From Macrostomum lignano (Eukaryota), in assembly GCA_002269645.1 (NCBI GenBank), contig NIVC01000106.1, positions 310,001 through 374,000 on the forward strand: DNA of 64,000 nucleotides. Direction: 5' to 3'. The notes below the pieces were generated by a model. That model was not told where the DNA came from. It ran no database searches and was given only the letters and a program-made list of their open reading frames with translations. Each line of letters opens with the position of its first letter. Positions within the stretch are counted from its first letter, which is position 1. The translations under genes and the position numbers were made by a program. This document shows positions 5,631-64,000 of the stretch, piece by piece.

Positions 5631-5942
5631 AGTGTACAAATTAAGAGGCAGGCGGCTGTTTTGTAATAATAAACTGGCAACCTCAAGATCACTCGGTTCA
5701 GATAGATAACACGACACAGACGGTGAAAAAGCAGGTAGAAGTAAATCAACTAGAATAAGCATTGACTAGAAGATTTTTGATTGATTATATCAGGTTCCGA
5801 AAAGCAATCGATAAAAAAATCGATCGACTTATTTATTAATCAACCCTGATGCTGATCGGCCTGCAGCTCGGCAACAGACTTCTCCGACTTTTTCATTTTG
5901 GCCATATCGATACCAAAATGCTTGAGATGCTGCTCAAGCTTA

Positions 5943-6913
5943 TGATGTGTTCCTTATTACCAGTCCTCAACTGTAATCAAGGAACAATCACTTCTAGCTC
6001 TGTAGCTAGGCAACCCAGTAATCAAATGAAGGTATTCAATTACCTTTGAGTCCTTAAATGAGAGCTCTCGTAATAATCCTCGTCCGTAGTATCGCGATCA
6101 GTAACTTTCCTGTCCTTCAGGAAGTTTAGGCGCCTGGTAACAGTTGATCTGGTCCGTTATCTCCTTTGTCCTCTTGACTTCTTGCCGGCCGGTATCTGTA
6201 GTTCGGACCAATCGGAAGCTTCCAAATTAACAATGGGGATCCCTGCGCCAAACTGCGGTTTAATATAAGCCTACTCCTTCTAGTAGTGCCTCTATGCACT
6301 CTAGGTATGGCTCCGGAAACCACTGATAGTCTTCTAAGATCTATCAGGGGCAGTCCTTCTGGAGACTGCAACCAGTGGAGTCTAAACAGACTCAAGAGTC
6401 TCAGCAGACTCAAATAAACTCAAGTCTCAATAGACTTGAGCGAGACGTCTCAACCAACGGGCGCAAATGAGTAAGGCTTACCGCAAGAACTCGTCCACGA
6501 CGCGAGTTTCTTCAGGAAGGCTTCACTAGAGCTTCCTCTTCGGAGCTTCTCTCTCTTGGAGATTTTCTGGCTCCGGGTCCGTTCCGGACCACTTGTATTT
6601 ATAGGCGTTCAGACCTCTCTCGAGGTCGTACATCACTGTCTTCGCAAATGTCAAAGGGTCACGATTCGGTGGCTGTCAAGCATGACAGGGTAGAAAGTTG
6701 CGCAACTAGTCTACTGTAAAAGCGCATGATTGGTTACCGTAGCTGGTAGACTTTGATTGGTTCATCCGGGTGCAACCCGAGTGCAAACCAAATGATGACT
6801 TGAAGGTGGGGTTTGAGTTTGAGTTTAGTAGTATTTAGTTTACTACTAAATAAAATGTGTGAGTAGTACATTAACACTTTTATGTCTTCTTACGGGAGGT
6901 AGAACACTCTACA
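5943..6913 (-). repeat. 3' LTR (971 bp)
   Basis: Minus strand TGTAGAG...CACATCA; TATAAAT box near 6596-6602; no difference from 15472-16442 seen by eye. Confidence 0.95.
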
Positions 6914-7131: not shown

Positions 7132-7344
7132 CTAACAATAGGCGCACTGCCGCAAACTACTTCTACCTATCGGGCAATTCTGCCAGAGCTGAATATAATG
7201 TGAGTCGCTTAAATATTGTCCGCATATGCGATGTCTGTTTTCACAAATAATTGGTGGCTTGACAGCCAAGTCATCAGTTAAACATATTGGGCATTCGTAG
7301 AGTTGCTGTAGTTGGGGCGCCTGTTTGGACAGTGCGTTGCCCAT
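7132..7344 (-). CDS. Small accessory ORF (70 aa) with a degenerate SINA-type RING finger and MGxxxS N-terminus
   Basis: MGNALSK; CPIC...PPIICENRHRICGQY...CPIGR; lies between the pol stop and the 3' LTR. Confidence 0.5.
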   Translation of the reverse strand: MGNALSKQAPQLQQLYECPICLTDDLAVKPPIICENRHRICGQYLSDSHYIQLWQNCPIGRSSLRQCAYC

Positions 7345-7455: not shown

Positions 7456-10400
7456 TTAACGAGGTCGCAGATTGTAGCCATGTTGCTGGTTCTCGGTTGA
7501 TGTTTGTGTCTCCTCGTGTTTTGTTGCGATGTGGCGGTTCGCCGAACGCGTGCGATCAGCGTTGTCTAGTGACGGTAAAAACGTTGTCGTGTCAGTGTTG
7601 ATCTTCTTTAGTCGATGAATGTGCACGTAGAATTGGTGCTGATGAGGATCTTGCACATTGGCCAGGCGTGCCGTTGTCGGTGACGTTAGTTGGACCACTC
7701 GATATGGTCCTTTGTACTTCTGTGCGTGTTTGTGCGTCTGTTGCGGCGGATAGTGCAGGTAGACGATGTCGCCGGCTGTCAGAGTTGTCGATCTCGTGTC
7801 GGTGCCGGTGGTTAGAGCCACCTGATTGTCGATGTTGTGCTTGGCTACTTTCCATGCGAGGTGTAGTTGCGTGACGAACTTTTGAATGGACGTCGGGACT
7901 TCCACATATTGCGATGGTAGTAGTTGCTGTGCCAATAGGTTTGGCGGCTGGAAGTCTCGCCCAAACATTAGAAAGAATGGCGTATTGTCCGTTGATCGAT
8001 GAATAGCGCTGTTGTAGGCCATTGTTACTGCTTGCAGGTAGATGATCCAGTCTTCCGGCTGTTGATGCGCGAAGTGTGTAATCATCTCGTGCAGGTTGCG
8101 GTGAAACCGTTCAACCATGTTCGCCTTCGGATTGTAGGTCGATGTGTAGATCTGCGTAATGTTGAGAATCTTCACAACTTGCTGAAACAGTTGAGACGTA
8201 AACTGCGATCCGTTGTCTGACGTAAGATTCTTCGGCGTGCCGTACTTGCAGATGATGTCGTTGAAAAAGCTCATTGCCACCGTCTGAGCTGTGATGTCCG
8301 GTATCGGTATGGCGATAGCAAACTTCGAGAAGATATCCAAGGCGGTTAGGATGTAGGTGTAGGCTATGCCCTGGAGACAGCTCGGTGGTAGCGGTCCGGT
8401 GATGTCGATGCTTAGACAGTCCATTGTAGTCGACTTCGGAATGGACTGTAGCTGCGGTTTCTGTCGTCGTCCTGTCTTTGATGCAGCACATGAATGGCAG
8501 TTGTTGCAATACTGCTTGATGTCGCCGTACATAGTTGGCCAAAAGTAGTATTGTCCCACTCTCGCGATGGTCTTTGCGGCCGACAGGTGTCCAGCGAGTG
8601 GGTTGTCGTGCAGCTCGTTGAGAATTGCTTGCCGAAACGAATATGGTATGTAGATTTTAGGTTTGTTGTCACTCATCCAGTAGAGTCGTGACTTGTTGAT
8701 TGTTAAATGTTGTCGCTGCTTGCGCAGGAATTTTCGTTCCACGGGGCTGAGCTTGATGTCCTTGTCGTTGTTTTTAACTGCTATGTAGAAGTTGTCGTGT
8801 TCCGTCTCATCCACCAATTCCTTGATGTTAGGGATTGGATGAATGGCGTTGACTTCGTAGGCTCTTGACAGGGCGTCCGCGGCCTTGTTAGTAATTCCTG
8901 GTTTGTAGACGAGCTTGTAGTTGTAGTCCTGGATCTTGAGTGTCATCCTGATGAGTCGGTTGTTTGTTTGTCCTTTTGTAGTTACGACGTAGGTCAGCGG
9001 TGCGTGATCTGTGCGTACTATCGTCTGTAATGGAGATCCATAGATGTAGTAGTGAAACTGTCGTAGGGCGAACAGAACTCCTAGTAGTTCTCGTTCCGTA
9101 GCTGACCATTTTGTCTCATTCGGTTTAAGTGCTCGACTGACGTAGGCTATAGGTCGTTCCTTTTTGTCTTCAGTTTCCTGTAGTAGGACTGCTCCGAGTC
9201 CCGTTCCTGAGGCGTCTGTCTCGATGATGAAGGGTTTGTCGAAGTCCGGATGCTGTAGCAGTGCGTCTGATGTCAGCTGTCGTTTGATTTCGTCAAAACT
9301 TTCTTGTTGCTTTTGTGTCCAATTCTCCTGCTTCCATTTGTCGAACTTGAGCAGGTCGTACAGCGGCTTTGCTGTCTTCGCGAAGTTGGGTAAGAACTTT
9401 CGGAAGTATTGCGCAAGTCCAAGAAATGATTGGACCTTCGTTTTGCTAGTTGGCGTAGGAAACTTTTTCACTTTATCCACGTTGTCTGGGTCCGGTGAAA
9501 TTCCTTTGGCTGTCACCTGATGTCCCAGGTAACGCACGTTGTCTCGGAAGAATTTGCATTTAGTTGGTTGTAGCTTCAGACCTTGACGTTGTATAAGCGC
9601 GAGGGCCTTCTCCGTCGCTTCATAGAGTCGTTCGAAGTCTTCTCCGTAGGCCAAGATGTCGTCAACATAGTGCAACAGGTTCGTGCATCCTGCAAGCATG
9701 TATGCTGTTAGTCGGCTCATCGTTGCTGGGCTGTTGCTGAGTCCCATCGGCGATCGATTGTACTCGTATACTTGTCCATTGTAGGTTTTGAAAGCCGTGT
9801 ACTGTCGTGACTCTTTCTCGATTTCAATTTGCCAAAATCCATGACGTAGATCGAACACTGTGAACAATTTTGCCGTGTTGAGCTTTGCTAGTAGTTCGGA
9901 GATCTTCGGTAGGCTTTGCTGATCCGTCGGTATGTACTTGTTCAGTAGTCTGAAGTCACATACGAGTCGTCTTTCGTTAGTCTCCTTCTTTTGCACCAAG
10001 AGACATGGTGATGAGTATGCTGAAATGGCTTTGCTGATGATGCCGTGTTTCAGCATTTTGTCGATAATCTCATCGAAGTGCTGTTGCAGATGCTTGGCGA
10101 TCGGGTACGGTTTGCACTGAATTGGTTCCGTGTGCGGCAGAAGTTTGATTTCCTGTTTGATGTCCTTGGCTCGTCCGATGTCGTAGTCATGGTGGCAGAA
10201 AGCGTCGTTGTACTTCCACAACAGCTGTCGAACTTTCCTCTTTTGCTGTTCCGTAATCGGGCTGTCATCCAAATTGATCTTCTTTTGAAATTCTTCCTCT
10301 GTTAGTCGTGGAGTCGCTTGCTCAATCAGCATAACCGATGCTTGGGTGTTGAGATGACCGATGCACATTCCTTGTCGTAGATGAACCGTTTCTGTGTTCG

Positions 10401-13400
10401 GGTTGAATATTTGTACTGGCAGCTGTTTATCTTTTGCAACCAGTACTAGTGCCGTAGGCATCATAATTTGGTGTTTAGCCGTGACTCTTCTGTTTGGGTC
10501 GAATATCATTGCTTCCTCCGTTGCGTTAGTTGCCTTTGCCTTTATCCAGCAGGCGCTCTCCGGTTGGATGATGACATCTTGTTGCAATGTTACTTTTGGT
10601 AGTACTCGGATCTGGTTGATCAATGGTTGTTCTACCGAGTCGATCTTGAACGTTTGCTTATTGAAGTCGAAGGTCAATGGTAGTCGAAGCTGCTTGAACG
10701 TGTCGATGCCAACAATAACGTCCTGGTTTGGGAGTCTGTCGATGACGTACGTTGGAACTGTCAAGTGTTTATTAGCGATTCTTAAATCAATGTCGGCTTT
10801 TCCCAGAATGTTTAGCGAATGTCCTCCTGCTCCTGCAACTGCGATTGTTGCTGGCCGTAGAGCAAGTCGTAGCTTGTTGCACAGTTGTTTTGATATAACT
10901 GTGATGGAGCTGCCGGAATCGAGTAGCGCTCGACATGGTAGATTGTTGATTACCACTTGAGCCATGGCTTTGCCAATTTCGGCGTGTAGAGTACATACGT
11001 AGTTCTCTGGCCATTTTGGGTCTTGCTGTTCTGCTTGATAGTTGGGTGGTTGTATTCTTGGTGCCGTTGGTGTTGTCGGAATCGATGGATATAGCCGCGT
11101 TGCTAGTGTCGGTTGCCCTTGAACCTCACGATGTGCAGTTTCTGTTAGTTCTAAACTGTTGTCGCCTTCCGTTGTCGTTCTTTGCATTATGGCATTCACT
11201 GTCTTCTTAGCTCTTGGACAAGTTTGACTGAAGCACCGTACGATCGACGAAATGATGAAGATTGCCGTGACAATCCACACAATGCAAGCACCGTAGAAGA
11301 TGAATCCTTGATAGAGACTGCCTCTTCCATTGAGCAGCTCCCAGAAGCTGTTTGTCCAAAATGATTTGATGGCGCTGTCCATTGAAACAAGGACGGGAAA
11401 TCTTCCTGTCCCGGTTCCTTTGTCCTTTCTTGTGAACAGCTGGTGAATCATCTTGCGTTGGGTGATGAACGCTTGCAAGAAGTCGTTGATCGTCCATCCT
11501 GGTGTTATCTCGTCAAGTTGGATATCGGCGAATGGCGTATACTTCGTTCTGTTGAATCGGATTTTCAAATCCTCCATGTCGTAGTTTTCGTCGACGATTA
11601 CTTCCGGTTCTGTGATGTTTGCTGTCGTTCCAGTTGTTTTGATGACGTGTAGTGCATTGTCCAGTTGATAGTAGTTTGCTGCCGTGGTGCAAGGTCTCGG
11701 TATTGCGGTGCCAACGATGATGTTGTGTACCGTGTCCAAGAATCCTTGAATTCGTTTTCCTTCGTAGAACGCTTCAATCCTTGGCTTGTCGTAGCAGGTT
11801 GTTGACGTGTTCGACGGCAAGATGTTAAAGTGCTGTATCGGCGTGCACTTGTATATCAACAGATGCTCGTATATTGGAACTGCCAAAACGTTCGTCATTC
11901 CGGTGATTTTACGAAAAGTCATCGTAGGGTTGACATAGTAGTTTTGTCTGGCATAATTTAAGTTGATTGCGTGCATTTTGCAAGTTAGCTGGACCAGTGT
12001 TCGATGCAAGTGGTTTAACTGGTTGTGTAGATTGTGATCCAAAGCCGTTATCTTTGCTGACAGTAGTCGGTTTGACACCAGTTTGGGACGTTCGATGTCA
12101 CGTCGTCGTCTGTTCTGTTGTTCCTGCTGTTGATACGTTCCGTTGATGATCGCCAGAAAGGTTTGTTTGTCGTCATCTTTTACGTAGACTGGTATCTCTT
12201 GTTCCGAGATGAATAGTGTCTTGTCTGTATCCTTGCATTTCAGTTTTTGCTCGACTGGTTTCTTTTGAAACGTCAGTGCCAAGTCTCCTGACTTTGCCAA
12301 AAACGTGTTTGACAGTAGGCCTCCTTCCACTGTGTGGTACTTTTGTAGTTGACAGTCGATTTCCGTCTCAACCTTCCAAGCGAAGAAATATTGTCGTGAC
12401 TTTGATGGCTCTTCGTAGTGTGGATCGGCTCTGTGCACTATCTGCCATCGATAGTCTGGATGATACGTTGGACTCAGCGGTAGGCTGTAGAGTTCTGCAT
12501 TTCGCAATATCGGCGTTGGGCACCATCCTTCGCTGTATCGGCATTCACTTAGTTGCAGTTGCAGTGATTCCATTTTCTCGTACGGATTGTAGTAGAACGG
12601 AACATTCCTGATTAGGTAGCTGTTGCGTGCCGTGTAGTCAGGCCATCTTTCATTATAGTGGACATATCGACCGTTTGCCACATTCTTTGTTCGGAAGAGT
12701 TGTGCGTTGCCGACCTTTTCATCAGGTTCTAGTACACCATCTTTGGAGAACAATGTCTGGTTCCATCGTAGGCAGTCAGCGTGCGACACATGTAGCTCAT
12801 GCTGTCGGAATCGGATTCTGTTCCATTGTCCTCGCCATATTTTTTCGACTAGGTGCTTGTCTCTGAAGCACACGATTCCAAGTTGTCGATGCTTCTTGAT
12901 GTTGGCTTTGTAGAGATCGATTGTGATCTTTTTTGGCTTCGCCTGGTTTGTCTTGAAGTAGCTGCATTTGATGTCGGTTGGTATCTTGTAGATCATCGGT
13001 TGGATATGCGCATCCGTTGGACATATCATTGGTTTCTCCATTGCTGTTGCTTTGGTGACTACTGCCGTCAGTAGTATTATGATGATCCAGAATATCCAGA
13101 ATCGCCATTTTCTGAACGTTGCCGTTGTCTTTGCTGGCATTGGCTGCGGCTGCCATTCGTTATCTTCTACGTCCGCATCGTATTCTTCCTCTTGTTCCAT
13201 TGGCGTTTCCGAGCGCAAGGCATCCGATTCGTTCCGCTGCTTGTCGTCTTCATCATTTTCTTCCTTGCTTTCTTCCGATGTTGTAGTTGTGTCACTCCAT
13301 TGTCTGCGGTACCTCACTTCGGCCTTGTAGTCGACCGTTTGGATGTAGGCTTCACCATTTCGTTTATAGCGGATCTCGTAGCATTGATCGCTGTCGGAGC

Positions 13401-14775
13401 TTAGATTTCTTTCTTCCATTCCTTTGTGCCTTCCGTCTTCATGTTCTTTGTCGGCGGCTCGGTTGTCATCAGCATCATTGTGCATCTCATAATCGTGATC
13501 GCTGCTTTCTTCTTGCTGTTCTTCTTCCATCTCCGCATTTCCGTCGTTGCTTCTTTCGTTGTCATCCTTCGTTGCCAGTTCTTTGTCGTTGCTTTTGTTT
13601 GTTTCTTCTTTTCTTTCACTGATGTCGCTTGACAATGTTTTTTCTGTGCTCACTTCTGTCTTTTCTTCTTCGCTGTCAATGTTAGTTTCTTTCATTTCGA
13701 CCATGCTGATGTTTTTTGTCTTTTCGCTGCTCTCCACATCGAGCCAGTCGATTTCATTGATAGTGAAGTCCATTTCTAAGTCGTCTATCGTGAAGACTTG
13801 CTGCTCTTGCTGTTCGCTTTCCGGTGTGTACGTGATGGCGTTTGCATATCGTTGCATCGCTTGCGTTGGTTGCTTGGGCATGTATCTGGTGTTTCGCGGT
13901 CTGTAGCCATTGTTTCCGAAGCGTTTCGTGTTTTGCTGCTGCCAATTTTGATGTTGTTGCCATGGTTTTTGCGGCTTCCTTCTGTTGAATGGCTGTCGCT
14001 GCATGTCATTTCTTGTTGACCGATGAGGACAATGTATTTGGTAGTGTCCTTCTCGTCCACAGTAATAGCATCTGGCTTGGGCTCGTTCATTTCGTCTTTT
14101 TTGTTCGGCGATAACGGCTGTTTGATGTTGCATCAATTTGTTTAGTTGCTGTGTCAGTTTCTGCACTTCTGTGTTGCCGGTTGTCATTAGTGGAGCGCTT
14201 GCTTCCCACTGCATTCCGCACCGTAAAAGGTCTTCCTCGGTTTCAATGTTTTCGCGTAGAAGTCTATCTCGGAGTGACGGCTGTGCATTGTTTATTACGT
14301 GCAGAATCAGATTTTGTTCGCGATCCATCAATCGCTGTCGCTCTCTAGCGGCTAATTCTGCCGCACCCAGAGGTGGTTGGTCTGCAGCTGGCAGTGTTGG
14401 CTGATGCAGTGCCTTAATTATCTGACGGATGTCGTCCACAAAGGTCAGGAAGGATTCGGTTGGCTGCATCCTTCTGTTATGCAACTTGTGCAGTAGCACT
14501 GATCTGTTTGTGCCACAGCGGTTGAAGTGTGCGCGCAGTTGAATGATTAATGCTGGGTAGTTTTGCTGTGTTGCCGCGTCTAGTTTACCATAAATCTCTC
14601 GTGCAGTGCCTTGGAGGAGTGGTGGCAACAGTTGCGCTTTTTCTGGATTTTGTAGGTTGTATTCCCTACATACCAGGTCAAAATGATCAACAAAGGTGTT
14701 AAAGTCTTTTTCCATAGAAAAGGTGCCAACTGTCTCTTTGATATCTCTGTGCACCGTTGGATTGCGCCGCGCCAT
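7456..14775 (-). CDS. 2439-aa Gag-Env-Pol polyprotein
   Basis: CCHC knuckle CYYCGREGHYQIHC (14029-14070); internal signal peptide (13042-13107); furin site RRRR (12100-12111); TM (about 11238-11310); protease LLDSGS (10912-10920); RT YVDD (9658-9669); RNase H TDASG...ADALSR; integrase HHCC, DITG/DNGSQF/ERFH and GPY motif. Confidence 0.96.
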   Translation of the reverse strand: MARRNPTVHRDIKETVGTFSMEKDFNTFVDHFDLVCREYNLQNPEKAQLLPPLLQGTAREIYGKLDAATQQNYPALIIQLRAHFNRCGTNRSVLLHKLHNRRMQPTESFLTFVDDIRQIIKALHQPTLPAADQPPLGAAELAARERQRLMDREQNLILHVINNAQPSLRDRLLRENIETEEDLLRCGMQWEASAPLMTTGNTEVQKLTQQLNKLMQHQTAVIAEQKRRNERAQARCYYCGREGHYQIHCPHRSTRNDMQRQPFNRRKPQKPWQQHQNWQQQNTKRFGNNGYRPRNTRYMPKQPTQAMQRYANAITYTPESEQQEQQVFTIDDLEMDFTINEIDWLDVESSEKTKNISMVEMKETNIDSEEEKTEVSTEKTLSSDISERKEETNKSNDKELATKDDNERSNDGNAEMEEEQQEESSDHDYEMHNDADDNRAADKEHEDGRHKGMEERNLSSDSDQCYEIRYKRNGEAYIQTVDYKAEVRYRRQWSDTTTTSEESKEENDEDDKQRNESDALRSETPMEQEEEYDADVEDNEWQPQPMPAKTTATFRKWRFWIFWIIIILLTAVVTKATAMEKPMICPTDAHIQPMIYKIPTDIKCSYFKTNQAKPKKITIDLYKANIKKHRQLGIVCFRDKHLVEKIWRGQWNRIRFRQHELHVSHADCLRWNQTLFSKDGVLEPDEKVGNAQLFRTKNVANGRYVHYNERWPDYTARNSYLIRNVPFYYNPYEKMESLQLQLSECRYSEGWCPTPILRNAELYSLPLSPTYHPDYRWQIVHRADPHYEEPSKSRQYFFAWKVETEIDCQLQKYHTVEGGLLSNTFLAKSGDLALTFQKKPVEQKLKCKDTDKTLFISEQEIPVYVKDDDKQTFLAIINGTYQQQEQQNRRRRDIERPKLVSNRLLSAKITALDHNLHNQLNHLHRTLVQLTCKMHAINLNYARQNYYVNPTMTFRKITGMTNVLAVPIYEHLLIYKCTPIQHFNILPSNTSTTCYDKPRIEAFYEGKRIQGFLDTVHNIIVGTAIPRPCTTAANYYQLDNALHVIKTTGTTANITEPEVIVDENYDMEDLKIRFNRTKYTPFADIQLDEITPGWTINDFLQAFITQRKMIHQLFTRKDKGTGTGRFPVLVSMDSAIKSFWTNSFWELLNGRGSLYQGFIFYGACIVWIVTAIFIISSIVRCFSQTCPRAKKTVNAIMQRTTTEGDNSLELTETAHREVQGQPTLATRLYPSIPTTPTAPRIQPPNYQAEQQDPKWPENYVCTLHAEIGKAMAQVVINNLPCRALLDSGSSITVISKQLCNKLRLALRPATIAVAGAGGHSLNILGKADIDLRIANKHLTVPTYVIDRLPNQDVIVGIDTFKQLRLPLTFDFNKQTFKIDSVEQPLINQIRVLPKVTLQQDVIIQPESACWIKAKATNATEEAMIFDPNRRVTAKHQIMMPTALVLVAKDKQLPVQIFNPNTETVHLRQGMCIGHLNTQASVMLIEQATPRLTEEEFQKKINLDDSPITEQQKRKVRQLLWKYNDAFCHHDYDIGRAKDIKQEIKLLPHTEPIQCKPYPIAKHLQQHFDEIIDKMLKHGIISKAISAYSSPCLLVQKKETNERRLVCDFRLLNKYIPTDQQSLPKISELLAKLNTAKLFTVFDLRHGFWQIEIEKESRQYTAFKTYNGQVYEYNRSPMGLSNSPATMSRLTAYMLAGCTNLLHYVDDILAYGEDFERLYEATEKALALIQRQGLKLQPTKCKFFRDNVRYLGHQVTAKGISPDPDNVDKVKKFPTPTSKTKVQSFLGLAQYFRKFLPNFAKTAKPLYDLLKFDKWKQENWTQKQQESFDEIKRQLTSDALLQHPDFDKPFIIETDASGTGLGAVLLQETEDKKERPIAYVSRALKPNETKWSATERELLGVLFALRQFHYYIYGSPLQTIVRTDHAPLTYVVTTKGQTNNRLIRMTLKIQDYNYKLVYKPGITNKAADALSRAYEVNAIHPIPNIKELVDETEHDNFYIAVKNNDKDIKLSPVERKFLRKQRQHLTINKSRLYWMSDNKPKIYIPYSFRQAILNELHDNPLAGHLSAAKTIARVGQYYFWPTMYGDIKQYCNNCHSCAASKTGRRQKPQLQSIPKSTTMDCLSIDITGPLPPSCLQGIAYTYILTALDIFSKFAIAIPIPDITAQTVAMSFFNDIICKYGTPKNLTSDNGSQFTSQLFQQVVKILNITQIYTSTYNPKANMVERFHRNLHEMITHFAHQQPEDWIIYLQAVTMAYNSAIHRSTDNTPFFLMFGRDFQPPNLLAQQLLPSQYVEVPTSIQKFVTQLHLAWKVAKHNIDNQVALTTGTDTRSTTLTAGDIVYLHYPPQQTHKHAQKYKGPYRVVQLTSPTTARLANVQDPHQHQFYVHIHRLKKINTDTTTFLPSLDNADRTRSANRHIATKHEETQTSTENQQHGYNLRPR
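11230..13110 (-). other. Envelope glycoprotein domain, herpes gB/chuvirus G-like class III fusogen, inside the polyprotein
   Basis: TCKMHAINL...VNP...LLIYKCTP...TCYDKP...QGFL...PRPC follows the gB WCELQN...LNP...VSTCVP...CYSRP...GQL...EPC pattern; sequons NQT, NGT, NTS, NIT, NRT; signal peptide, furin site and TM. Confidence 0.75.
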
Positions 14776-15451
14776 GTTGTTGATGGGATAGAACGGTAGC
14801 TCTAGGTCTGGGTCGATTTGTAATGGATCTTCCAGTGTGGTGTTTCTTTCGAAATAAACTTCGGTTGTAACTGATTGTCTCGCGGCGCTTTTGACACCTC
14901 AATTTGTTATGTCTGACCTTGAACGGAATTCGGCTTTTGGCTGCTTTTTCTGACCTCTTATTCGCTGGCTGATTTTCGCACTTATGCGGCGTCCCGCAAA
15001 GTGTATCTTTAAAGTGCTTGAAGTGCAGCTGCTTCTTGCTTTTTTCAAAGGCCTTTCTTGTCTTCGTGACGTGCCTTGTCACGTTTTATCAAATTTCGGT
15101 TTGTTTTAGCTTTCGTCAAGTGTTTTTAATTTCGGTTTTGTTTTAGTGTGTATTGATTATTTTTCGGTTTGTTTTCAGTGTACCGGACGTTGTTTTCGGT
15201 TTTGTTTAAGGTTTACTCTTGCTCGAGCTCGTTAAAAACAAAAATTTAACACGCGTGCTCAAACGTTACTCAAAATTGACAGGTACTCAAGCCTGTATAC
15301 CAAAACTTTTACTCGAGTTTCAAATCGTACAAAAATCGAAAAGTGTCGAAAAGTGTTACCTCTAACACGTGCGCGCAAAATTAATGAAGTCGCTCTTTCG
15401 TCACTTTACAATAGCTTGGCCAGGCTATTGCTCAAAAGTTTGAGTAGTGCC

Positions 15452-15469
15452 GAGAGGGCGAGATCACCA
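15452..15469 (-). promoter_or_regulatory. Primer-binding site (TGGTGATCTCGCCCTCTC); primer tRNA not identified
   Basis: TGG starts 2 nt after the 5' LTR end. Confidence 0.6.
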
Positions 15470-15471
15470 AT

Positions 15472-16442
15472 TGATGTGTTCCTTATTACCAGTCCTCAAC
15501 TGTAATCAAGGAACAATCACTTCTAGCTCTGTAGCTAGGCAACCCAGTAATCAAATGAAGGTATTCAATTACCTTTGAGTCCTTAAATGAGAGCTCTCGT
15601 AATAATCCTCGTCCGTAGTATCGCGATCAGTAACTTTCCTGTCCTTCAGGAAGTTTAGGCGCCTGGTAACAGTTGATCTGGTCCGTTATCTCCTTTGTCC
15701 TCTTGACTTCTTGCCGGCCGGTATCTGTAGTTCGGACCAATCGGAAGCTTCCAAATTAACAATGGGGATCCCTGCGCCAAACTGCGGTTTAATATAAGCC
15801 TACTCCTTCTAGTAGTGCCTCTATGCACTCTAGGTATGGCTCCGGAAACCACTGATAGTCTTCTAAGATCTATCAGGGGCAGTCCTTCTGGAGACTGCAA
15901 CCAGTGGAGTCTAAACAGACTCAAGAGTCTCAGCAGACTCAAATAAACTCAAGTCTCAATAGACTTGAGCGAGACGTCTCAACCAACGGGCGCAAATGAG
16001 TAAGGCTTACCGCAAGAACTCGTCCACGACGCGAGTTTCTTCAGGAAGGCTTCACTAGAGCTTCCTCTTCGGAGCTTCTCTCTCTTGGAGATTTTCTGGC
16101 TCCGGGTCCGTTCCGGACCACTTGTATTTATAGGCGTTCAGACCTCTCTCGAGGTCGTACATCACTGTCTTCGCAAATGTCAAAGGGTCACGATTCGGTG
16201 GCTGTCAAGCATGACAGGGTAGAAAGTTGCGCAACTAGTCTACTGTAAAAGCGCATGATTGGTTACCGTAGCTGGTAGACTTTGATTGGTTCATCCGGGT
16301 GCAACCCGAGTGCAAACCAAATGATGACTTGAAGGTGGGGTTTGAGTTTGAGTTTAGTAGTATTTAGTTTACTACTAAATAAAATGTGTGAGTAGTACAT
16401 TAACACTTTTATGTCTTCTTACGGGAGGTAGAACACTCTACA
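15472..16442 (-). repeat. 5' LTR (971 bp)
   Basis: Same sequence as 5943-6913; the identical 95-aa ORFs at 6126 and 15655 show the same 9529 offset. Confidence 0.95.
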
Positions 16443-16934
16443 CTTACTATCCAGCACCATATTATCCTCGGCATAAGAGTACACATCGGCGCCTTGAGCA
16501 CAGATGGTGCCCAGTTTAACAGCCAGAGGATAGCCAGTCTTCTCATAGTGCTCAACAGCGTGGTTGTTGCCGCCGGAGCCGTCAAAGTAGCGCCGGCCGC
16601 ACAGGATGGTGCCGTCAGTCAGGTTTAGCCAGAGATTGTCGCGCTTATCACACTTGGCGCACTGCCAACCGCTGGGCGGGATTTTTATCCCATTGTCCAG
16701 CTGGACAAGGCTGGAAGCGTGCTTGGACTCTTGGCGATCAGACATGTTTTCCAGTATAGAATAAAGCAGCTAAGCTGAAAAACAATAAAGAAATAATAGA
16801 TTAATTTTTTCATAAGATTTGATTTGCATATTTAATGGGCCTTTAATTGCCTCTGAGGGCCTGTCGAACCCCTCCCTGACGCTTTATCGGGTAGTGTCTC
16901 TACACCCTCCCCGATTCTACAGGTGACTGCTCTA

Positions 16935-21950: not shown

Positions 21951-24900
21951 ACACATTATGCATAGAGTAAAACAATAGGCCTAAGATCAAATAATAGCTA
22001 AGTTAATAAATTAATAATAACAAATAGAAATAAAAGCAAACAGTTAATCTAGAAAATAAATACAGAATAGAAAAGTTAAAGAATTCTCAAGACTCAAAAT
22101 TAAACATCATCTTAAAAATGGTAAAAATTGTAAAAGACTGTAAAAATATTATAAAAAATATTACAATAAAATTTGTAAATAATAGACACTCAATAACCAA
22201 TGTTTTATAAAATATACATTTGGCCAAAAATACCTTATTACCAATTGGAAATATCTCAATATCTAATCTCTTTAAGTAACACTGACATCAATAAGAAATG
22301 TATAGTCATTACTAACCATGGCTTCTTTTAAAGAAATATTTCATTACAAAGTGGTTACTCTCCTATCTGCCCCTTATGTGATTAAGAGAAGGAAATATTG
22401 ATTGCTATTTTTTATGACATAACCAGAAAATGTTATTTTCTAGTTGAGTTGACAGTCATTTTATCTGCTGCCAGTTTGTCTGGCACTCTTTTGTCTGCCA
22501 AAATATGATGCAATCATATTGTCAACAAAATATTAAATACAATGTCAGTCTAAAGGAAATATCTAGACTGTATATCTTAAAAATATTCAAAAGTAAAAAT
22601 AAGGAACTCCTTTTTTAAAGTATGAGTATAGTTATACATATTATTTTAAGACTTACCAAATGTTGACTTGACATATAGGTCTATATAAGTATATAATTTG
22701 AAGTTAAGTTTATATAAACTTTGCAACAGGATAGCAAATATTTTATCATCATTGGATTGGGATAGGGCCAGGAATCATAATAATGCTTATAATCATATTT
22801 AACTACAAACTACTTTATCTTCTAATTCACTAACAACTAACTGTCACAATACTTTTTTTAACAAATGTTTATATTAAATATATTTTTTGAAATATTGCAT
22901 TAAACAATATTATGCATGCAAAAAAGATATCCTTGATCACATGACTCTTTGCATAACTTGCTAGATAAACTCACCATTCTAGATTGCATCTATAACCTAC
23001 ATTTGTGATTTTTTAGGGCTCTAGTCTAGATAGATAAAGATCCTTGGACTAGATGCCACTTTTGCAAGCTTTTCTGTTGCTTGCATGGGACAGGTCATAG
23101 GTGGGTGTGGCCCTAAGTAAGGGCAAGGCTAAAGATACCTTTCTATTTGTAGCTTAAGTTCATAAGTTGCAAATTGCAATAGGGGCTTTGCGGCTTTAGC
23201 CTAGGGCCATTCTGCAATTCTGCCTAGGGCCTAGGGCCATTGTAGCATTCTGCCCCCTAGCATAAGACAGTAAATAAGAAAGTAATCTATCACCAAACCT
23301 TTAAAAAATAATTAGTTTGTGCTAGCTAGGCCTAGCCTAAGGCCTATTCCTAGTATGTGCATAGTGCATAGAAGTATATATATAAACCCTAAGACTAAGG
23401 GAATAAGATCAAGTAAGTAATATAGATCATAGGCCTATTCATGGTGTTAGGGGCGGCGATTTCTTAGTTTCCCGCATTTAATTATAACCCCCACCCCCCA
23501 CCACCCTTGAATAGAGGGCGAAATAATTCCGTAAAATAATTAAATGCGGGAATCTTCAGGATCGCCTCAGGGGCCTATATAATAATACAAAATGACTCAT
23601 GAGTTCATAGGATGGTAGGACTTTAGGAGTATATAGAACTACTCATGTTCTTATACAAGAGACTTAGGCCTAATATTGTGCTATTGTAAACATAAAAATT
23701 GCCTATAATCTTCTAGCTAGGCCTAGGCCTAGTAAATCTACATAACATAACATTCACTGATTCACATAATATTTAGGCCTTAAGTAAAAGACATCCAATA
23801 CTAAGCCTACTGTCATTGACTCATTAGAATTTATGGTTAGACCAAGCATATACTGCATTGCATAGCAAATTAGCAGTGCATACTGGGATGATACTGCCTA
23901 GGCTAGGCCTACTCAAATATAGGCCTAATTCTAATTCGATGCCAAATACCAGATGCCAGATGACTATAAATATAATGACAATGACAATTAGTATATCCGT
24001 AGTAGGTAGGTAGGCTTGCGTACATATACATGGCAACGACCTTGAAGGACGACTTAGTACTACTTATGTCGTCCTTGATACAAGGCGCGTGAAGGCGGTA
24101 GAAGTATAGTCCTTGGACGATAAATGACCATCTTGTTAAACGCAACCCCGTAACCAACAATTACTCTTAACTTAAAAATACGCCGTAGAAGGCTGAAACT
24201 AACGTTGATTACATTATTTGATTACTCTTTATTTAAAAAAAATAGTGAGTAGATGAAGTAACTACATGAATCATTAGTAACTTTGTTAATATTTCCCTTT
24301 AAAGGCTACAAAATATCAAAATGCAGCGTATTTTGTAGAATTCTGACCATACCAAGGACTATACAAAATCTATTAAAATGGCTTGCTACTATTTTACCCT
24401 CACTACCCCGGTAGCAATAATCAATACACACCGATATGGATTTTCGCACTTCTTATGGATCTGCTGTCCTAGCTCCCAAAGGTCCCAGGTCAATTCGGTG
24501 ACAAGACATTTCGGTGACAACAACTTCGGTGACAACTTGGGACGTTTCGGTGAAACCAGTGGTCAATTCGGTGACAAGCTTTTTAGACTTGATTTGACTA
24601 TTTTTCGTTGTTAAATATTAATATATATAAGCTGTTAATATAAACTCTTATTAAAGTAATAAAGGTTCGTATGCTATACTATCAATTATCATTTTGTTTG
24701 AGTGCGTTTCGAGGCATAACACTTATGTTTAACAGCGCGCACTTAATTTTATCCATACTTTTAATTTTTCAACCCAAGTCAACGACAATTGATTATTAGA
24801 TTTTTTGTACTACATCTACATGTACATGTATTGTAGATGTACATGTACGTCTTAAAAGCCATTGAACGAGTTCAGAAAACAACTGTATATCTATAGCGTA

Positions 24901-25707
24901 GCTTATGACTGTACATGTTTTTATGTGCTAATTCAGGGACTATAAGGCAAGGGGCGCCAATAGGGGCGGACGTACCCGCGGATAGAGCTTGATAGAACTT
25001 ATTGAGCCCCCAAAAACCTAAGTTTGCACCCTTTAAACTAGATTTTTCGCCTCCTACACGCATTTTTTGCACCCCTAGCTTAAAAATTGGCGCCCCTCAT
25101 ACTCATGAATTATTGGCGCCCAAAACTTGGACCGACCCCCCCCCGCCCCCTCCCCCCCCAGCGAATGATGTATAGTCAAAGGCTATAGCTTCTTATTGGT
25201 GTCTGATTTTCGTAAACAAATTTATTGTGGTTACTAAATCAAGTTATTTTAAAGCAATTAGTTACAGTACGTATACAGTGTAAGTATATGAAATTAATCG
25301 ATAGTATAATGAGCTGAATGATACATCTAGTTCAGTTATTTAGCAGTGTATTTTAGCAAGGATAGAGAAGCAGTACACATATTTGCACCAAAAAGGCGTC
25401 AACACAAGTCGACACAACATGTACAGTACAATATAATGAGTACGAATGAGAATGAGAGTAATTCAGCTGGCGCAACCAGCTGGGGCGGAGGGCGGTTGCC
25501 CCTCCTTCGGGGGACCGGAAAAAATCAAAGGGGACCAAGCGAATGATTCGCCCCCCCTCAACAAATTTCTGGTTGCGCTACTGCGAGAGTACATGGTATA
25601 CGCGAGTAGTATAGTTCCCTAAATATCCGGCCTTGATTCTAGTACATGCACAGTCTAGTGTATATGTCTAGTACATATGTAGTCTTTGGTGCAACACAGT
25701 CGTCATG

Positions 25708-28242: not shown

Positions 28243-31217
28243 CAGACAATTGAGCTAGTATTCTTTAGCTAGCTAGTTGCTTTTTAGATGCAGAGAAGAT
28301 ATTAAGTCGATATTCTTGAGTGTTAAAGAGTAAATATATAGTGCGCCGACTGGTAGCTATATGGGTCTTGCGTTCAATTGCTTCTGTACAAGTATTGATA
28401 TAGGACGCATGCGCAATATACACGTAATGTGATGGCGTTTTAACCAATAGAATATCACAATATCACAGAATTTCGATTGCGTAGAAAGTAAGCAATTCTG
28501 ATTGACCACATCCGTTTAAATTACCTAGCATAACTTAATGCTGGTTCTGTGATTCATGGATTTAGCGGTTAGCAACCAGTAATTGTGATGTAATGAGTGC
28601 CAACAAGAGCACAGCAATTTTCTTATATAGTATAATTATCACATTCACTTAACTGTGTTGCTGAATGAACGAATAAGTGTTATTCATTTACTAAATGTAG
28701 AAGACCAAGTTTTGTATGACTTTACATTTGTACACATGTGTTTATGTTAACATGGTCACGATCGCCACGACCATAAGTTCACAGTACAGCTTTGTCAATA
28801 AGCGCCAAAATTAATTACATGATAAATTTCAAGCCAACTCACCCATAATCTATACTCTGTGAGGCGCACATACAGGTTCCTAGTCACTTCGTCATCTGCC
28901 ATTTCGTCATCTGGGGTGTCTGGGGTGCCCACCTCGACTAGGGTCACTTCGTCATCTTGATTTGCATGCACTACCTCAAGAGAGTCATTTCGTCATCCAC
29001 CAGTTCCAACTTCCAAGTGAATTGATGTGGCAATTAAACATATTTACATGGAATCCTAATCATCCCAGTCATTTTGACATCTCGATTGATAAAACCTGTC
29101 GATCGATCGGTTCTGCTTGCCGCAGCTGATAGTTAATAAAGACAAAAATAGTTTACACTAACTCGAATCTCACACAGATTGATTGGTTTGATGACGAAGT
29201 ATCCAGCATAACTAAATATTTGGTCACTTCGTCATATTATTTTTCAAAGCTACTTTGCTTCTGGTCACTTCGTCATCCGATATGACGAAATGGAATATGA
29301 CGATCTGACCAGTGACCCACATACAGTAGCGGATCTAGAATTTCATTTGGGGGCCGAAGGGGGGCCGGGGCGTCGGTCCAAGTTTTGGGCGCCAATAATT
29401 CATGAGTATGAGGGGCGCCAATTTTTAAGCTAGGGGTGCAAAAAATGCGTGTAGGAGGCGAAAAATCTAGTTTAAAGGGTGCAAACTTAGGTTTTTGGGG
29501 GCTCAATAAGTTCTATCAAGCTCTATCCGCGGGTACGTCCGCCCCTATTGGCGCCCCTTGCCTTATAGTCCCTGAATTAGCACATAAAAACATGTACAGT
29601 CATAAGCTACGCTATAGATATACAGTTGTTTTCTGAACTCGTTCAATGGCTTTTAAGACGTACATGTACATCTACAATACATGTACATGTAGATTGTAGT
29701 ACAAAAAATCTAATAATCAATTGTCGTTGACTTGGGTTGAAAAATTAAAAGTATGGATAAAATTAAGTGCGCGCTGTTAAACATAAGTGTTATGCCTCGA
29801 AACGCACTCAAACAAAATGATAATTGATAGCATACGAACCTTTATTACTTTAATAAGAGTTTATATTAACAGCTTATATATATTAATATTTAACAACGAA
29901 AAATAGTCAAATCAAGTCTAAAAAGCTTGTCACCGAATTGACCACTGGTGTCACCGAAACGTCCCAAGTTGTCACCGAAGTTGTTGTCACCGAAATGTCT
30001 TGTCACCGAATTGACCTGGGACCGCTCCCAAACCTTATCTCCCTATTGCTTTTAGGGAATTACCCACCTTTTTATTTCTTTTTCGTAGAATCTTAATGTA
30101 CAATATTCTTTTATCTGCTTTCCACCTAGCCAAGGACCTATATATATAATTGGTCCTTGATCTTAGCTAGCACATGCGCAAAAGCGCACACTGCCCAGCT
30201 CTTTCACTGCGCAAATATCACAGCCTGCAATTATCATTTACTGTAGCACAATTGTAGCATGGGAACACTCGATCAGTTTGCATGATCTGTGATCCCCGCC
30301 TAGCCTTTCTCACTCCATTTAACTACTCGAGCAAATAATCATCTTCTATACTTCTCAACTTTGTTAAGTGACTAACTATAAATGCTCGCAAAACCCTTGC
30401 CAGAGTTGCTCGCTATACAGCAATGTTTCCTTCTTATTTCCTGCTGTTATTTCTACTTGTAGACATGGAGCATTTGGCAGACACTCCCACACTTTTTACC
30501 TGCGCACCCAACTGTCCATGCAATTCTTCCCATGTTTGTTTTCAACTCCCCGCCAATTTATTTCATTTTCTTCTGCTATTACTCTGAGTCTGACTGCTCA
30601 CTATTGTGTACATGTATGTTCCTCCCGAATTCTCTTTTAAACTCAACTGCACATACAGAGTGCTTAACTAGTAGAGTCGCACACCCTACTCGCGTGATCA
30701 GGCTGGCCCACATCCTCTCCATTTCTTCATTATTTCAGCAGTCCTGCCCCCTCCCAATTTTTGTGCACCCTTCCTCTTCCCCTGTGACTCATGCTTCTCA
30801 TGCTTATCGCCTAAACACCACTATATGCTTCGAGCACCAACCCCACTTTTCTATATTTCAAAATAATTCATGCGTGTGACAATTAATTTATATCATCCCC
30901 TATCTCCCCAAGCCTTAATCTTCCTGCAGCTGTTATGTAATCCCCCATCATAAATCATTTTCTTCGTTGTGCCCCACCCCAATTTCTCGGCTAATCGCAG
31001 CACGTCTGGCAGGTGACGTCACCAGGTTTGCTTGGTGACGGAGGGCAAAGACAAGTCACGGCTTTTAAATATCACGCATCATATGCGCCTCACGTGATCG
31101 CGTGGCACGTGATCTGAGGATGATCTTGTAGATAAGAGCTCGTTTTGAGCCCTGAGCTGTCAAAACCTGTCCTAACCTGTCTGAACCTGTCCACTGGACT
31201 TTCTCCTTTCTCCCACT

Positions 31218-44987: not shown

Positions 44988-46476
44988 TGCGTAGTGTGAG
45001 GGAACAGAAACATATGGAGCAGGAGGGAGATAGGAAGCAAACGCGCAGGGTAAGGGAGCCACACAGGGCGGTACAGTGAGACACGGGCAGGGGTGGAGCC
45101 GTGCGTGGACAGAGCTGAACGGCATGGTCAGCTGCAGGAATAGGATGATAGAGAGGCGCGGATAGGAGGGACAGAGAGCAGTGTGCAGGGGTAGGCAGCC
45201 ACGCTGGCAGGGAACAGAGGCGCGTGTAGCCAGTTGCAGCCCGGGACAGAGAAGTGTGAAGGGGGCCTGGGACAGAGTTCCGAGCAAGGCACAGAGAGGT
45301 AGGGTCCGGTAGCCATGTATAGACAGGGACCCACGCGAGGGCAGGACAGGGGAGTAGACATGCAAGTTGCATGCAAGGCCAGAGAGGTGTGCGCGGAGGG
45401 AGACAGAGAGCAGTGTGTAGGGGTAGGTAACAGCAAACTTTAGTAGAGGTGCGTGCGGGGACGGAGAAACCAGTCTGAGCGTACAGAGACGTTACAGAGA
45501 GGTACACAAACAGAGAACAAAGCGAGCAGAGCACATGTGTAGGCGCAGAGACGTGAGGGAGAATCGACCAAAACACGCTATGTATTATCAAAAGTTGGTT
45601 TTAGTGCAGCATATTTAATAGTGGGTAGTATAATAGTATGTACATAGTAGGTATAATGGTAGTAATAATAGTAAGTATATTAGCCCAAAAGGTAGGCTAA
45701 AACAGGCTAAACTGTGTGTACGCATCCTCATCACCCCACAAGCCCCCTCTCCCGCCAGATTCACTCTTCCAAACCCTCCTGTATTGCTGTATGAAGGAAA
45801 ATATAGTGTAAAAATACAGATGTTAACCGTCAGACCGCTGAAATCAGGGCACACTAGAGGGGGTTTCGGGGTCTGCATGCTCTATGTAAGCTGCTTGAGG
45901 AGGTTCCAAGGGCGTTGTGAGGGTTTCCATTATGTTTTGAAAAAACTAGGGGCTTAAATACAACGTTTTATTAAAAAAGTAGGTTATTTTAATGAAATAG
46001 CTGACACAATCATTGTCGAGAGTAGAAATTTTTATAAGAAACCAGGCATTTTAGCAAAAATAAACCTTCAAACCACATAAAATTGAATAAAAAGCAGACA
46101 TTTTCAATTATAAACCGCAAGTATTTTAATAGAAAAGTAAGCAAACAAGGCACAAAAGCAGCAAATTTTACCTTTTTTATTTTAATGTTACTGTTAAGGT
46201 AGAGAGTAGAAACTTGTGAGCTGTACGGAGTTAGAAAGTATTAACCATTATGTATCGTATGAATTATTAGTTCAGTACCAGCCATTGGTCAAGCGAGCAT
46301 TTATGAAGTTATTACGAGTGATGAAGGGATAGAGAGCTATATACAGGAAGACAGTATCCTTCTAAACCACCACGAACAGATTGCTAATACAGATAAGCTT
46401 TGTCTGTGTGCAGTATGAGTAAGCGAAGGCGGGGCAAATACTTTTCCACATGCCGGACAGAACAGTATTGTGCTAG
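44988..46476. repeat. Left TIR, outer verified part (pairs with 62512-64000)
   Basis: Constant coordinate sum 108988 (45615/63373, 45128/63860, 46471/62517); probably extends further left. Confidence 0.93.
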
Positions 46477-48312
46477 GATTTCTCTCGAAATCGCGGTACG
46501 TTACTAGTTTTTATCACACCATCCAGATGCGTCAACTAGTCAGCAGTAGTCATTTATATGTTATTAGAACTTACAAACCCAGGTCAGGTAAATATTACAA
46601 AGAGTATATTACGTACACACGCCAACTCCGAATACCAAGCCATACTAGTCTACTTGCAGTGCTCCTGGAGGGAAGGGACGGTCAAGAGTTACACACCAAG
46701 AATGCATTCACACAAAGAGTACACCACTCGAGCCCCGTCCATGCGCCCCGATATGTATGACGCAGGCAACCCTCCCGACATGTATGCCGCAGGCGACCCT
46801 CCCGACATGTACCCAACATGTATGTCGCAGGCGACCCTACTGACATGTACCCCGACATGTACACCCTACCAAATGGCACTCGAGCCACAGGTGCCAAGCG
46901 GCCCCCCGAAATGTACGCCGCGGGCGCCCCCCCTCCCGAGCCGAAGGTACACTCTTCCAATATGAGTGTACACTCTCCCAATACAAGTGTACACTCTCCC
47001 GATATGAGTGTACATCGATTTGTAGTCAACAATACCTATTAACACAAAATTAGGCTAGTGAAAACTACTTATAGTAGGTGAAATTGCGTATATTTACGTA
47101 AAAAGTAAGCAAAACACATATTAATCACATCAGTAGGTGTAAATATCAGGGCATAATACATATTACGAAACATATAGGTGTACGGACATATAGAATTAAG
47201 CATATGGACAGCAAAAACACACAATGTAGGTGCATTTATCGATATTTTGGCAGAAAAGTAGGTGAAATAGACAAAATAGTAGGTATAATTCACAGAACCT
47301 ACTCATTAGTGTAGTAGGCGCTTGTAGATGCTAGTATATTGTAAAACATAGGTTGAAATACACATACGCACAGTAGATACAAGTATAATGCAGGTGCATA
47401 TGCACACACTGTAGATTCGAATTATGTAGATGCATAGGCTAAAATACACACATCGTAGAGACAGAAGCAGGCATAATGCAGGAAAATTATGATACATATT
47501 AGTGCGTAAAGTATCATATTATGACACGCTGTAGCACATATTGACATAATGCAGGGGAAAATATTGACAGAAATAGTACACAATTGTAGAGGTAACAACC
47601 CGCCAACTAGTAAGGGCATCCAGCACTTGTTCAGGTTTTTATTATTTCGAGACGAGTGTCATGCCCCCGCAAGAGATCTTATCAGAAATTTGTTGAACTC
47701 CACTGCAACTCTCCCAGAGCCTCCAAATGCGAGTTTTTAACCCAGGGTCGAGTACAAAGGACCCGCCCACTCTTAACCCCAAGGGGTGATCCTAGCGGAG
47801 ACCAAGTACAGTGCGGACGGAGAGGGATAACAGAAAGCGCTGCACTGCACCAGACCGTGGGGCTGCATTCCTCCCCCGAGGTAGGCGCGTCAGCTCCCAC
47901 TCCTCATTTAACCATCAAGTAAACTAAAGAAGTCAAGCAGAAAGCCTTACTATCACCTGCAGCCAGCACAAGTAAGAGTACTTTCCACTAGAGAGCTATA
48001 GTGCAAGATTCGCGAGCCAAGTTGAAGCACACCAAATTACACTAAAGACATATGTATTAAAAAGCATACCGGCACCTCTACAAAAACACAGTATGTACCG
48101 ATTAAAGTTGCTTTTGGTGCAGTGTATTTAATAAAAAGCAGGTACCTAACACAAAAGTAGGCATCAATGCAGTGCACGGACTAAACTGTATTTACAAACG
48201 CAGGGCAACGAACTACACACAATGTAGCGCATAGACATAATTGTACGCATAAATGTACGCAATTTCCGGTATATAGGACCACATGTACGCAAATGTACAC
48301 AATGTACACAAA

Positions 48313-48389
<77 letters not shown>

Positions 48390-48476
48390 AGGCGTATCCT
48401 GCAGAGCGCATCCTGCAGCGCCGATCGCCGCAGGCGATGGCGCCATCGGCAGGAAGCTCTTGCTGTGAATACGCCT

Positions 48477-48553
<77 letters not shown>

Positions 48554-62376: not shown

Positions 62377-64000
62377 CCCCATGGAAATTCCGTGGCTTTC
62401 CCTGCGGCAGAGTCCACCAATGCATTTACATAGGCGCTATGTTTACACACTATAGCCCCGTGGTTTTCCCACGGAAATTCCTGCGGCAGAGTCCACATTT
62501 CCCCTACTACTCTAGCACAATACTGTTCTGTCCGGCATGTGGAAAAGTATTTGCCCCGCCTTCGCTTACTCATACTGCACACAGACAAAGCTTATCTGTA
62601 TTAGCAATCTGTTCGTGGTGGTTTAGAAGGATACTGTCTTCCTGTATATAGCTCTCTATCCCTTCATCACTCGTAATAACTTCATAAATGCTCGCTTGAC
62701 CAATGGCTGGTACTGAACTAATAATTCATACGATACATAATGGTTAATACTTTCTAACTCCGTACAGCTCACAAGTTTCTACTCTCTACCTTAACAGTAA
62801 CATTAAAATAAAAAAGGTAAAATTTGCTGCTTTTGTGCCTTGTTTGCTTACTTTTCTATTAAAATACTTGCGGTTTATAATTGAAAATGTCTGCTTTTTA
62901 TTCAATTTTATGTGGTTTGAAGGTTTATTTTTGCTAAAATGCCTGGTTTCTTATAAAAATTTCTACTCTCGACAATGATTGTGTCAGCTATTTCATTAAA
63001 ATAACCTACTTTTTGAATAAAACGTTGTATTTAAGCCCCTAGTTTTTTCAAAACATAATGGAAACCCTCACAACGCCCTTGGAACCTCCTCAAGCAGCTT
63101 ACATAGAGCATGCAGACCCCGAAACCCCCTCTAGTGTGCCCTGATTTCAGCGGTCTGACGGTTAACATCTGTATTTTTACACTATATTTTCCTTCATACA
63201 GCAATACAGGAGGGTTTGGAAGAGTGAATCTGGCGGGAGAGGGGGCTTGTGGGGTGATGAGGATGCGTACACACAGTTTAGCCTGTTTTAGCCTACCTTT
63301 TGGGCTAATATACTTACTATTATTACTACCATTATACCTACTATGTACATACTATTATACTACCCACTATTAAATATGCTGCACTAAAACCAACTTTTGA
63401 TAATACATAGCGTGTTTTGGTCGATTCTCCCTCACGTCTCTGCGCCTACACATGTGCTCTGCTCGCTTTGTTCTCTGTTTGTGTACCTCTCTGTAACGTC
63501 TCTGTACGCTCAGACTGGTTTCTCCGTCCCCGCACGCACCTCTACTAAAGTTTGCTGTTACCTACCCCTACACACTGCTCTCTGTCTCCCTCCGCGCACA
63601 CCTCTCTGGCCTTGCATGCAACTTGCATGTCTACTCCCCTGTCCTGCCCTCGCGTGGGTCCCTGTCTATACATGGCTACCGGACCCTACCTCTCTGTGCC
63701 TTGCTCGGAACTCTGTCCCAGGCCCCCTTCACACTTCTCTGTCCCGGGCTGCAACTGGCTACACGCGCCTCTGTTCCCTGCCAGCGTGGCTGCCTACCCC
63801 TGCACACTGCTCTCTGTCCCTCCTATCCGCGCCTCTCTATCATCCTATTCCTGCAGCTGACCATGCCGTTCAGCTCTGTCCACGCACGGCTCCACCCCTG
63901 CCCGTGTCTCACTGTACCGCCCTGTGTGGCTCCCTTACCCTGCGCGTTTGCTTCCTATCTCCCTCCTGCTCCATATGTTTCTGTTCCCTCACACTACGCA
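62377..64000. repeat. Right TIR of the Polinton (runs off the window)
   Basis: Reverse complement of 50392-50525 joined directly to 44988-46476. Confidence 0.93.

Follow-up and report, generated by a model that had tools for sequence, protein, structure and literature searches.

We have found that two short words, P[TS]AP and [LIM]YPx[LI], recur between the Env transmembrane (TM) helix and the protease in a clade of gag-env-pol retrotransposons of the flatworm Macrostomum lignano, where they resemble late domains carried on the tail of a fusion protein. Taken as sequence words, these two are a clade-wide feature, and their combination with PPxY, as found in the window (the whole 64,000-nt stretch of DNA that was analysed), is a trait of one family. 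The motifs are very probably under selection.

The window element is an intact single-ORF gag-env-pol Ty3/gypsy LTR retrotransposon. Two LTRs with a target duplication enclose domains in the Ty3/gypsy order PR-RT-RH-IN. As in HSV/gB-type gag-env-pol errantiviruses, env sits between gag and pol, a gB-fold ectodomain lies between a signal segment and a TM helix, and the genome holds multiple near-identical copies, with at least 40 matches at 93-100% identity over the linker region (40 scored of 76 candidates). The features are listed from the 5′ end of the element (a slash in a peptide marks a putative cut):

5939-5942 and 16443-16446, target duplication CTTA (4 bp) flanking the LTRs
15472..16442, minus strand, 5′ LTR of 971 bp (TG..CA), identical to the 3′ LTR
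15458..15469, minus strand, primer binding site of 12 nt, just inside the 5′ LTR
7456..14898, minus strand, gag-env-pol single open frame of 2480 aa, first ATG at 14775
14029..14070, minus strand, CCHC zinc knuckle (one) of Gag NC
13036..13113, minus strand, internal signal/anchor segment by hydropathy, aa 596-621, with basic residues in front
11308..13041, minus strand, predicted Env ectodomain, herpes gB-type class III fusogen (AlphaFold and Foldseek)
12100-12111, minus strand, furin-like RRRR in the Env ectodomain
11251..11307, minus strand, Env TM helix, aa ~1198-1216 (hydropathy peak 2.43)
11188..11199, minus strand, candidate viral-protease site VNA/I by pattern match, ~15 residues past the TM helix
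11080..11094, minus strand, LYPSI, ALIX-V-type motif, aa 1269-1273
11059..11070, minus strand, PTAP, TSG101-UEV-type motif, aa 1277-1280
11038..11049, minus strand, PPNY, WW/NEDD4-type motif, aa 1284-1287, specific to the family of the window element
10984..11019, minus strand, conserved W-P and candidate Env-tail/protease junction VCT/L
10675..10989, minus strand, aspartic protease (Pfam Asp_protease_2, RVP), DSG at 10912-10920 (aa 1327-1329)
8923..9993, minus strand, reverse transcriptase and RNase H (Pfam RVT_1, RT_RNaseH)
8128..8649, minus strand, integrase zinc-binding and core domains (Pfam Integrase_H2C2, rve)
7132..7344, minus strand, short degenerate RING-like accessory ORF of 70 aa (longer double-RING forms in sister copies)
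5943..6913, minus strand, 3′ LTR of 971 bp, identical to the 5′ LTR

An acidic spacer separates the CCHC knuckle of Gag from the hydrophobic signal segment (aa 596-621), which appears to start Env translocation. The AlphaFold model of the ectodomain (mean pLDDT 62) had herpesvirus gB for all of its top Foldseek matches (E 1.2e-18, prob 1.00, 10-14% identity), and its predicted fold is that of herpesvirus glycoprotein B. A 95%-identical UniRef protein carries the name Macrostomum lignano; the phage collection gave no match. The element type is known: errantiviruses with the gag-env-pol order and a gB-type Env have been reported from Nematoda, Bryozoa and Platyhelminthes by Chary and Hayashi (eLife; PMC13524379), who catalogue Platyhelminthes_Rhabditophora_Mlig_errantivirus_2 for this species, with the same host, a gB-type Env, the gag-env-pol order and the same 12-nt primer binding site (supplementary file 1). 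It differs from the window element in its LTR, listed at ~864 vs 971 bp.

The element interrupts a USP5-like gene, within one of its coding exons (zf-UBP; 5939-5942 / 16443-16769). An uninterrupted copy of this exon, 99% identical, lies nearby at ~1974-2268, so that the effect of the insertion may be buffered by a local duplicate of the gene. Elsewhere in the window, long perfect inverted repeats with arms of 1489, 740 and 538 nt (44988-50391 and 62512-64000) are nested like a foldback element or are an assembly artefact; inverted arms of ~680 nt placed 4.2 kb apart (24481-25160 / 29348-30023) probably belong to a DNA transposon.

In the budding of enveloped viruses YPx(n)L binds ALIX, P(T/S)AP binds TSG101 and PPxY binds NEDD4 ligases. 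Matches to all three consensus patterns are found in a disordered segment of the window polyprotein, on what hydropathy suggests is the cytosolic side. The minus strand from 11094 to 11038 reads LYPSIPTTPTAPRIQPPNY within the 2480-aa open frame, and LYPSI, PTAP and PPNY lie in one 19-residue stretch, with coordinates and frame exactly as the initial annotation had given them. Its placement of the motifs behind the Env TM helix holds as far as the interval between TM helix and protease is concerned; the cluster begins ~50 residues past the helix, not directly behind it, and ends ~40 residues ahead of the protease Asp. LYPSI had been described as only an approximate match to YPxL; the short ALIX pattern in ELM is [LM]YPx[LI], and LYPSI fits it, making it a better match than had been allowed. 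The strict forms of P[TS]AP, [LIM]YPx[LI] and PPxY occur once each in the whole polyprotein, all in the tail cluster. With the YP motif taken loosely (YPx1-3[LI]), shuffling the 80-residue linker 300,000 times brought all three together twice.

At the nucleotide level, no stable RNA structure was found over the motif codons (−4.9 kcal/mol). Subfamilies do not differ by any silent change in the eight codons over YPSIPTTP (11068-11091), although such changes are seen in 29 of 57 invariant codons; this absence may be due to chance. The MetaClust gene model P0002 skips the motif stretch and was treated as a putative prediction artefact.

Within the family of the window element (family A), the 19-mer is read in the protease frame at 27 of the 30 loci fetched, the other three being frame-shifted; these near-identical copies are too close for testing conservation. 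A comparison of 17 distinct haplotypes from 49 loci (overlapping fetches included) revealed no variation at the 10 core motif residues, whereas 26 of the 60 positions in the rest of the linker vary (Fisher p 0.006). Between subfamily copies the x of PPxY varies (PPNY, PPIY, PPTY, PPGY) with P, P and Y kept, and L is replaced by M ahead of YPSI (LYPSI / MYPSI). Word-seeded protein searches returned matches from family A only.

Env searches in the genome led to further families, fetched as 53 loci. These form three deep lineages, 33-42% identical in RT-RNaseH, and a branch H, all together one clade with moderate support (84/91). The cross-family count used one linker per family (n = 10), leaving out further copies from families already represented, C-type copies in a degraded state, which contain a stop and do not read PSAP (L104, L105, L110), copies with deletions that lack the linker (L092, L093, L106-L108) and fragments of env that have no protease close by (L101-L103, L113). 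P[TS]AP is present in eight of the ten linkers (A, B, B2, C, D, E, F, K; 0.235 expected from composition-preserving shuffles) and [LIM]YPx[LI] in seven (A, B, B2, D, F, G, K; 0.035 expected likewise); the families are kin and thus not ten independent trials, so the shuffle counts overstate independence. Both motifs are found in all three deep lineages. When gapped 4-mers were counted without bias, PxAP ranked first (9/10 linkers; 500 shuffled sets reach at most 7), and YPxI was found in 6/10, a count reached by 37 of the 500 shuffled sets. PPxY occurs in one family tail of ten (0.36 expected) and is not enriched. The conservation among relatives that the initial annotation had proposed as a check is thus above chance for two of its three motifs; among the ten family tails PPxY, and with it the complete triple, is seen in family A only.

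The order and spacing of the motifs change between families (YP ahead of PTAP in A; PTAP ahead by 8 residues in B and F and by 25 in D), as those of short linear motifs do, and the two words are kept although the linkers have little else in common. A conserved W-P stands 31-38 residues ahead of the catalytic Asp in 9 of the 10 families. Exceptions to the motif pattern are family H (L079, open through PR), without any of the motifs; family G, which reads PPAP; families C and E, without the YP motif; and one copy of family B (L062, open over 2502 aa), which reads PNAP.

Several other traits were observed in these families. RING-like accessory ORFs lie between pol and the 3′ LTR in lineage I elements (L066, L061, L063, L090), often two in tandem with a doubled Cys-rich unit in each; in family A the first begins with the myristoylation-like MGxxxS. 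The window ORF (7132-7344) is a remnant of 70 aa in which two Cys have been substituted, and the RING-like ORF had 107 matches in the genome. Neither 'RING' nor 'accessory' occurs in the main text of PMC13524379, as far as available. Internal-deletion derivatives recur in family B (L106, L107 and similar, with an open frame of 1031 aa; L092, L093): some have lost pol but retain gag, the RING ORFs and half of env, others are without TM helix, tail and protease, and they are possibly mobilised in trans. The Env of lineage II (L067, L069, L071) has an insertion of ~200-240 residues near the furin site, between two ectodomain halves, which is Thr/Pro-rich by opposite-strand reading.

Among 1.84 billion representatives, a search without a profile found 51 matches, 35 of them with a usable tail; the other 16 are P0002 (family A), P0005 (family D) and 14 sequences truncated before or just after the TM helix. 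P[TS]AP was found in 5 of the 35 distant tails (0.21 expected; 0 of 3000 shuffles), [LIM]YPx[LI] in 2 (0.15 expected, p 0.01) and PPxY in 2 (0.67 expected, p 0.14), the last again not indicating that PPxY is kept beyond family A. Some motif is present in 8 tails and none in 27. Among the five P[TS]AP tails, P0006 and P0007 resemble the flatworm lineages and one belongs to a Haemonchus contortus protein. As a control, 20 proteins were checked over the 130 residues that follow NC; neither P[TS]AP nor [LIM]YPx[LI] occurs there. The motif signal, as read from these tails, is strong in one clade and scattered elsewhere.

The putative partners, TSG101 and ALIX, are present in the host genome together with an HD-PTP-like gene. 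The UEV domain of host TSG101 (L114, G000:C629) is identical to the human one at 9 of 12 peptide-contact residues (list from PMC7650771); the changes at contact positions, Y63H, R64K and F142V, may shift its motif preference. Host ALIX keeps the KFYxxL stretch and has a PSAP of its own, which hints that PSAP recognition survives in the host. It is likely that the tail motifs bind TSG101 and ALIX.

Hydropathy and flanking basic residues suggest a topology in which the polyprotein would be threaded through the ER membrane, with Gag cytosolic on the signal anchor, the ectodomain luminal, and tail-PR-RT-IN on the cytosolic side, held by the Env TM helix. With Gag, ectodomain and tail on these predicted sides, the motifs belong to Env and not to Gag, and the motif segment would be the cytoplasmic tail of a gB-type Env, doubling as a spacer between Env and protease. 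P[TS]AP in this tail would recruit the TSG101 UEV domain and [LIM]YPx[LI] the ALIX V domain, PPxY being an additional ubiquitin-ligase hook in family A; clustered Env tails would then recruit ESCRT at the neck of the budding particle, at the plasma membrane or in the endosome lumen. Later, the viral protease would cut behind the motifs (VCT/L) and perhaps also ahead of them (VNA/I), stripping the motif peptide; both cuts together would free a peptide of ~67 residues. The pattern [VIAY][NC][ATS][IVL], fitted after the fact, occurs four times in the 2480 aa: after NC, ~15 residues past the TM helix, before PR, and at RT/IN. Related words are found at the same tail position in families F and G (IRA/I, IRT/I); in families B, C and E no match to the pattern was found there. 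We lean towards ESCRT-driven particle release as the main job of the motifs.

Other readings have to be weighed against particle release. ESCRT and NEDD4 motifs on transmembrane tails usually direct cargo sorting, and the motifs, standing on such a tail, could route Env, with Pol attached, to multivesicular bodies or to vesicles of the exosome kind, or serve Env turnover or an intracellular step of retrotransposition. This we consider unlikely but a serious competitor: the YPXnL-ALIX contact of LINE-1 ORF1p works without an enveloped particle (PMC5478143) and ZAM reportedly moves by endosomal/exosomal routes (PMC3383448), whereas the absence of the motifs from the env-less gypsy loci examined (0/20) is more in keeping with a role tied to the envelope than with a general one inside the cell, and two redundant ESCRT entry points are typical of budding viruses (PMC8402826). 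Sorting and particle release overlap if particles bud into endosomes. The YP motif might also be unrelated to ALIX, with P[TS]AP as the only ESCRT contact. It could be a YxxPhi endocytosis signal, of the kind that occurs in herpes gB tails, or an aromatic-Pro protease site like LYPAL at MA/p12 of MLV. Indeed, every [LIM]YPx[LI] also matches YxxPhi, which is present in 8/10 linkers (2.9 expected), and in families D, F, G and K the YP motif lies 6-12 residues ahead of the conserved W-P near the protease start. However, in 7 of 8 the Tyr is followed by Pro (+1) and preceded by L, I or M (−1), beyond what YxxPhi needs; sites of the VNA/I type, which are better protease candidates, mark the other domain borders and lie downstream of the YP motif; and the YP motif shifts with respect to the protease (38-58 residues ahead of the Asp) and swaps order with PTAP. 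Such a role of the YP motif is improbable in our estimate, a figure that overlaps those of the other readings. We give almost no credence to functionless motifs arising by chance in a Pro/Thr/Ser-rich linker; the linker is of low complexity and PPxY alone is at chance level across families, but composition-preserving shuffles and the substitution pattern reject chance for P[TS]AP and [LIM]YPx[LI].

As to origin, the initial annotation had suggested that gag may have been split by an env insertion, parting NC from a p6-like peptide. The motif peptide does stand directly before the protease, as p6 does in HIV; in some homologues (P0054, P0016) the Gag-Env frame stops right behind the tail; and the candidate cuts on either side could release a free peptide. 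Still, this origin finds no support in our data and is quite improbable. Two hydrophobic segments stand between NC and the motif tail, and the predicted topology, placing the motifs on Env, does not make the tail continuous with Gag on the same membrane side. The env-bearing lineages are each other's best RT matches, and the env-less comparison was made with 20 loci from the next-best Ty3/gypsy RT matches, all with no env match. In these, P[TS]AP or [LIM]YPx[LI] was found in ORFs >250 aa of 0/20, and the motifs in Gag or in the NC-PR linker of 0/20, a weak test, as most of the loci are 35-40% identical in RT, three are decayed copies in which the Gag-PR join cannot be read, and the remaining ones are distant; one of the 20 has PPPY. 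Late-domain-like words do occur on the Gag side in the sister families B (PPPY/PPAY), D (PSAP) and E (PPRY), but they lie upstream of env. No NC-tail joint skipping env was seen among the matches listed in four contig sets (weak evidence, three of the runs being presumed RNA); one piece among the sequencing-run contigs spans 11024-12107 (C-half of Env, TM helix and all three motifs), which says nothing on expression or splicing. Moreover, disordered tails readily give rise to short motifs.

Gag and matrix proteins have been described as carriers of late domains, which are position-independent (PMC8402826). Those of retroviruses (PTAP and YPXnL in HIV p6; PSAP, LYPAL and PPPY in MLV) belong to the same three classes and are likewise redundant and protease-adjacent (PMC8402826); here the candidate late domains are on a Ty3/gypsy Env tail, two membrane passes from Gag. 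Bluetongue NS3, a membrane glycoprotein of the virus and not a capsid protein, bears PSAP and PPRY in its cytosolic part (PMC7409164), but NS3 is non-structural and no fusogen, while the carrier here is a fusion protein fused to Pol. LINE-1 ORF1p is also a retroelement protein that uses ALIX through YPXnL, in an intracellular role and, unlike the window element, without an envelope (PMC5478143). A 2012 review described ESCRT use by errantiviruses as not known (PMC3383448), and PMC1224870 and PMC8278194, in the parts available, treat late domains on Gag or in references only. The available main text of PMC13524379 does not mention late domain, ESCRT, budding, PTAP or cytoplasmic; its 7 supplements (first 400 characters of cells) contain no late domain, ESCRT or PTAP, and PSAP three times, twice inside ectodomain sequences. 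Among the matches listed in our literature search, none dealt with late domains on the Env tail of errantiviruses. The Env-tail signal is likely absent from print; the bioRxiv paper on LTR elements of this species was covered in part, and Sacco et al. 2022, on nematode gag-env-pol elements, could mention tail motifs. Thus, the element type and the motifs are known, and the placement on the Env tail is unusual.

In MLV, the viral protease removes part of the Env tail, the R-peptide, at maturation; to our knowledge, this peptide is short and bears no late domain. The elements described here possibly share such trimming of the Env tail, with a cut predicted by pattern match only. We tentatively suggest that the flatworm errantivirus clade and, separately, some nematode-type elements may have transferred the task of budding from Gag to their fusion protein, and that the protease clips off the motif peptide as a combined p6 and R-peptide, possibly switching the fusogen on. 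If this reading is true, only particles bearing both Env and Pol recruit ESCRT. The host is a laboratory flatworm in which gene knock-down is possible, allowing a specific and testable answer. Conserved and movable TSG101 and ALIX motifs on the Env tail would put late domains on the fusogen, not on capsid or matrix. The tail motifs suggest that these elements really make enveloped particles, and the two motifs kept across distant relatives point to how such invertebrate elements exit cells.
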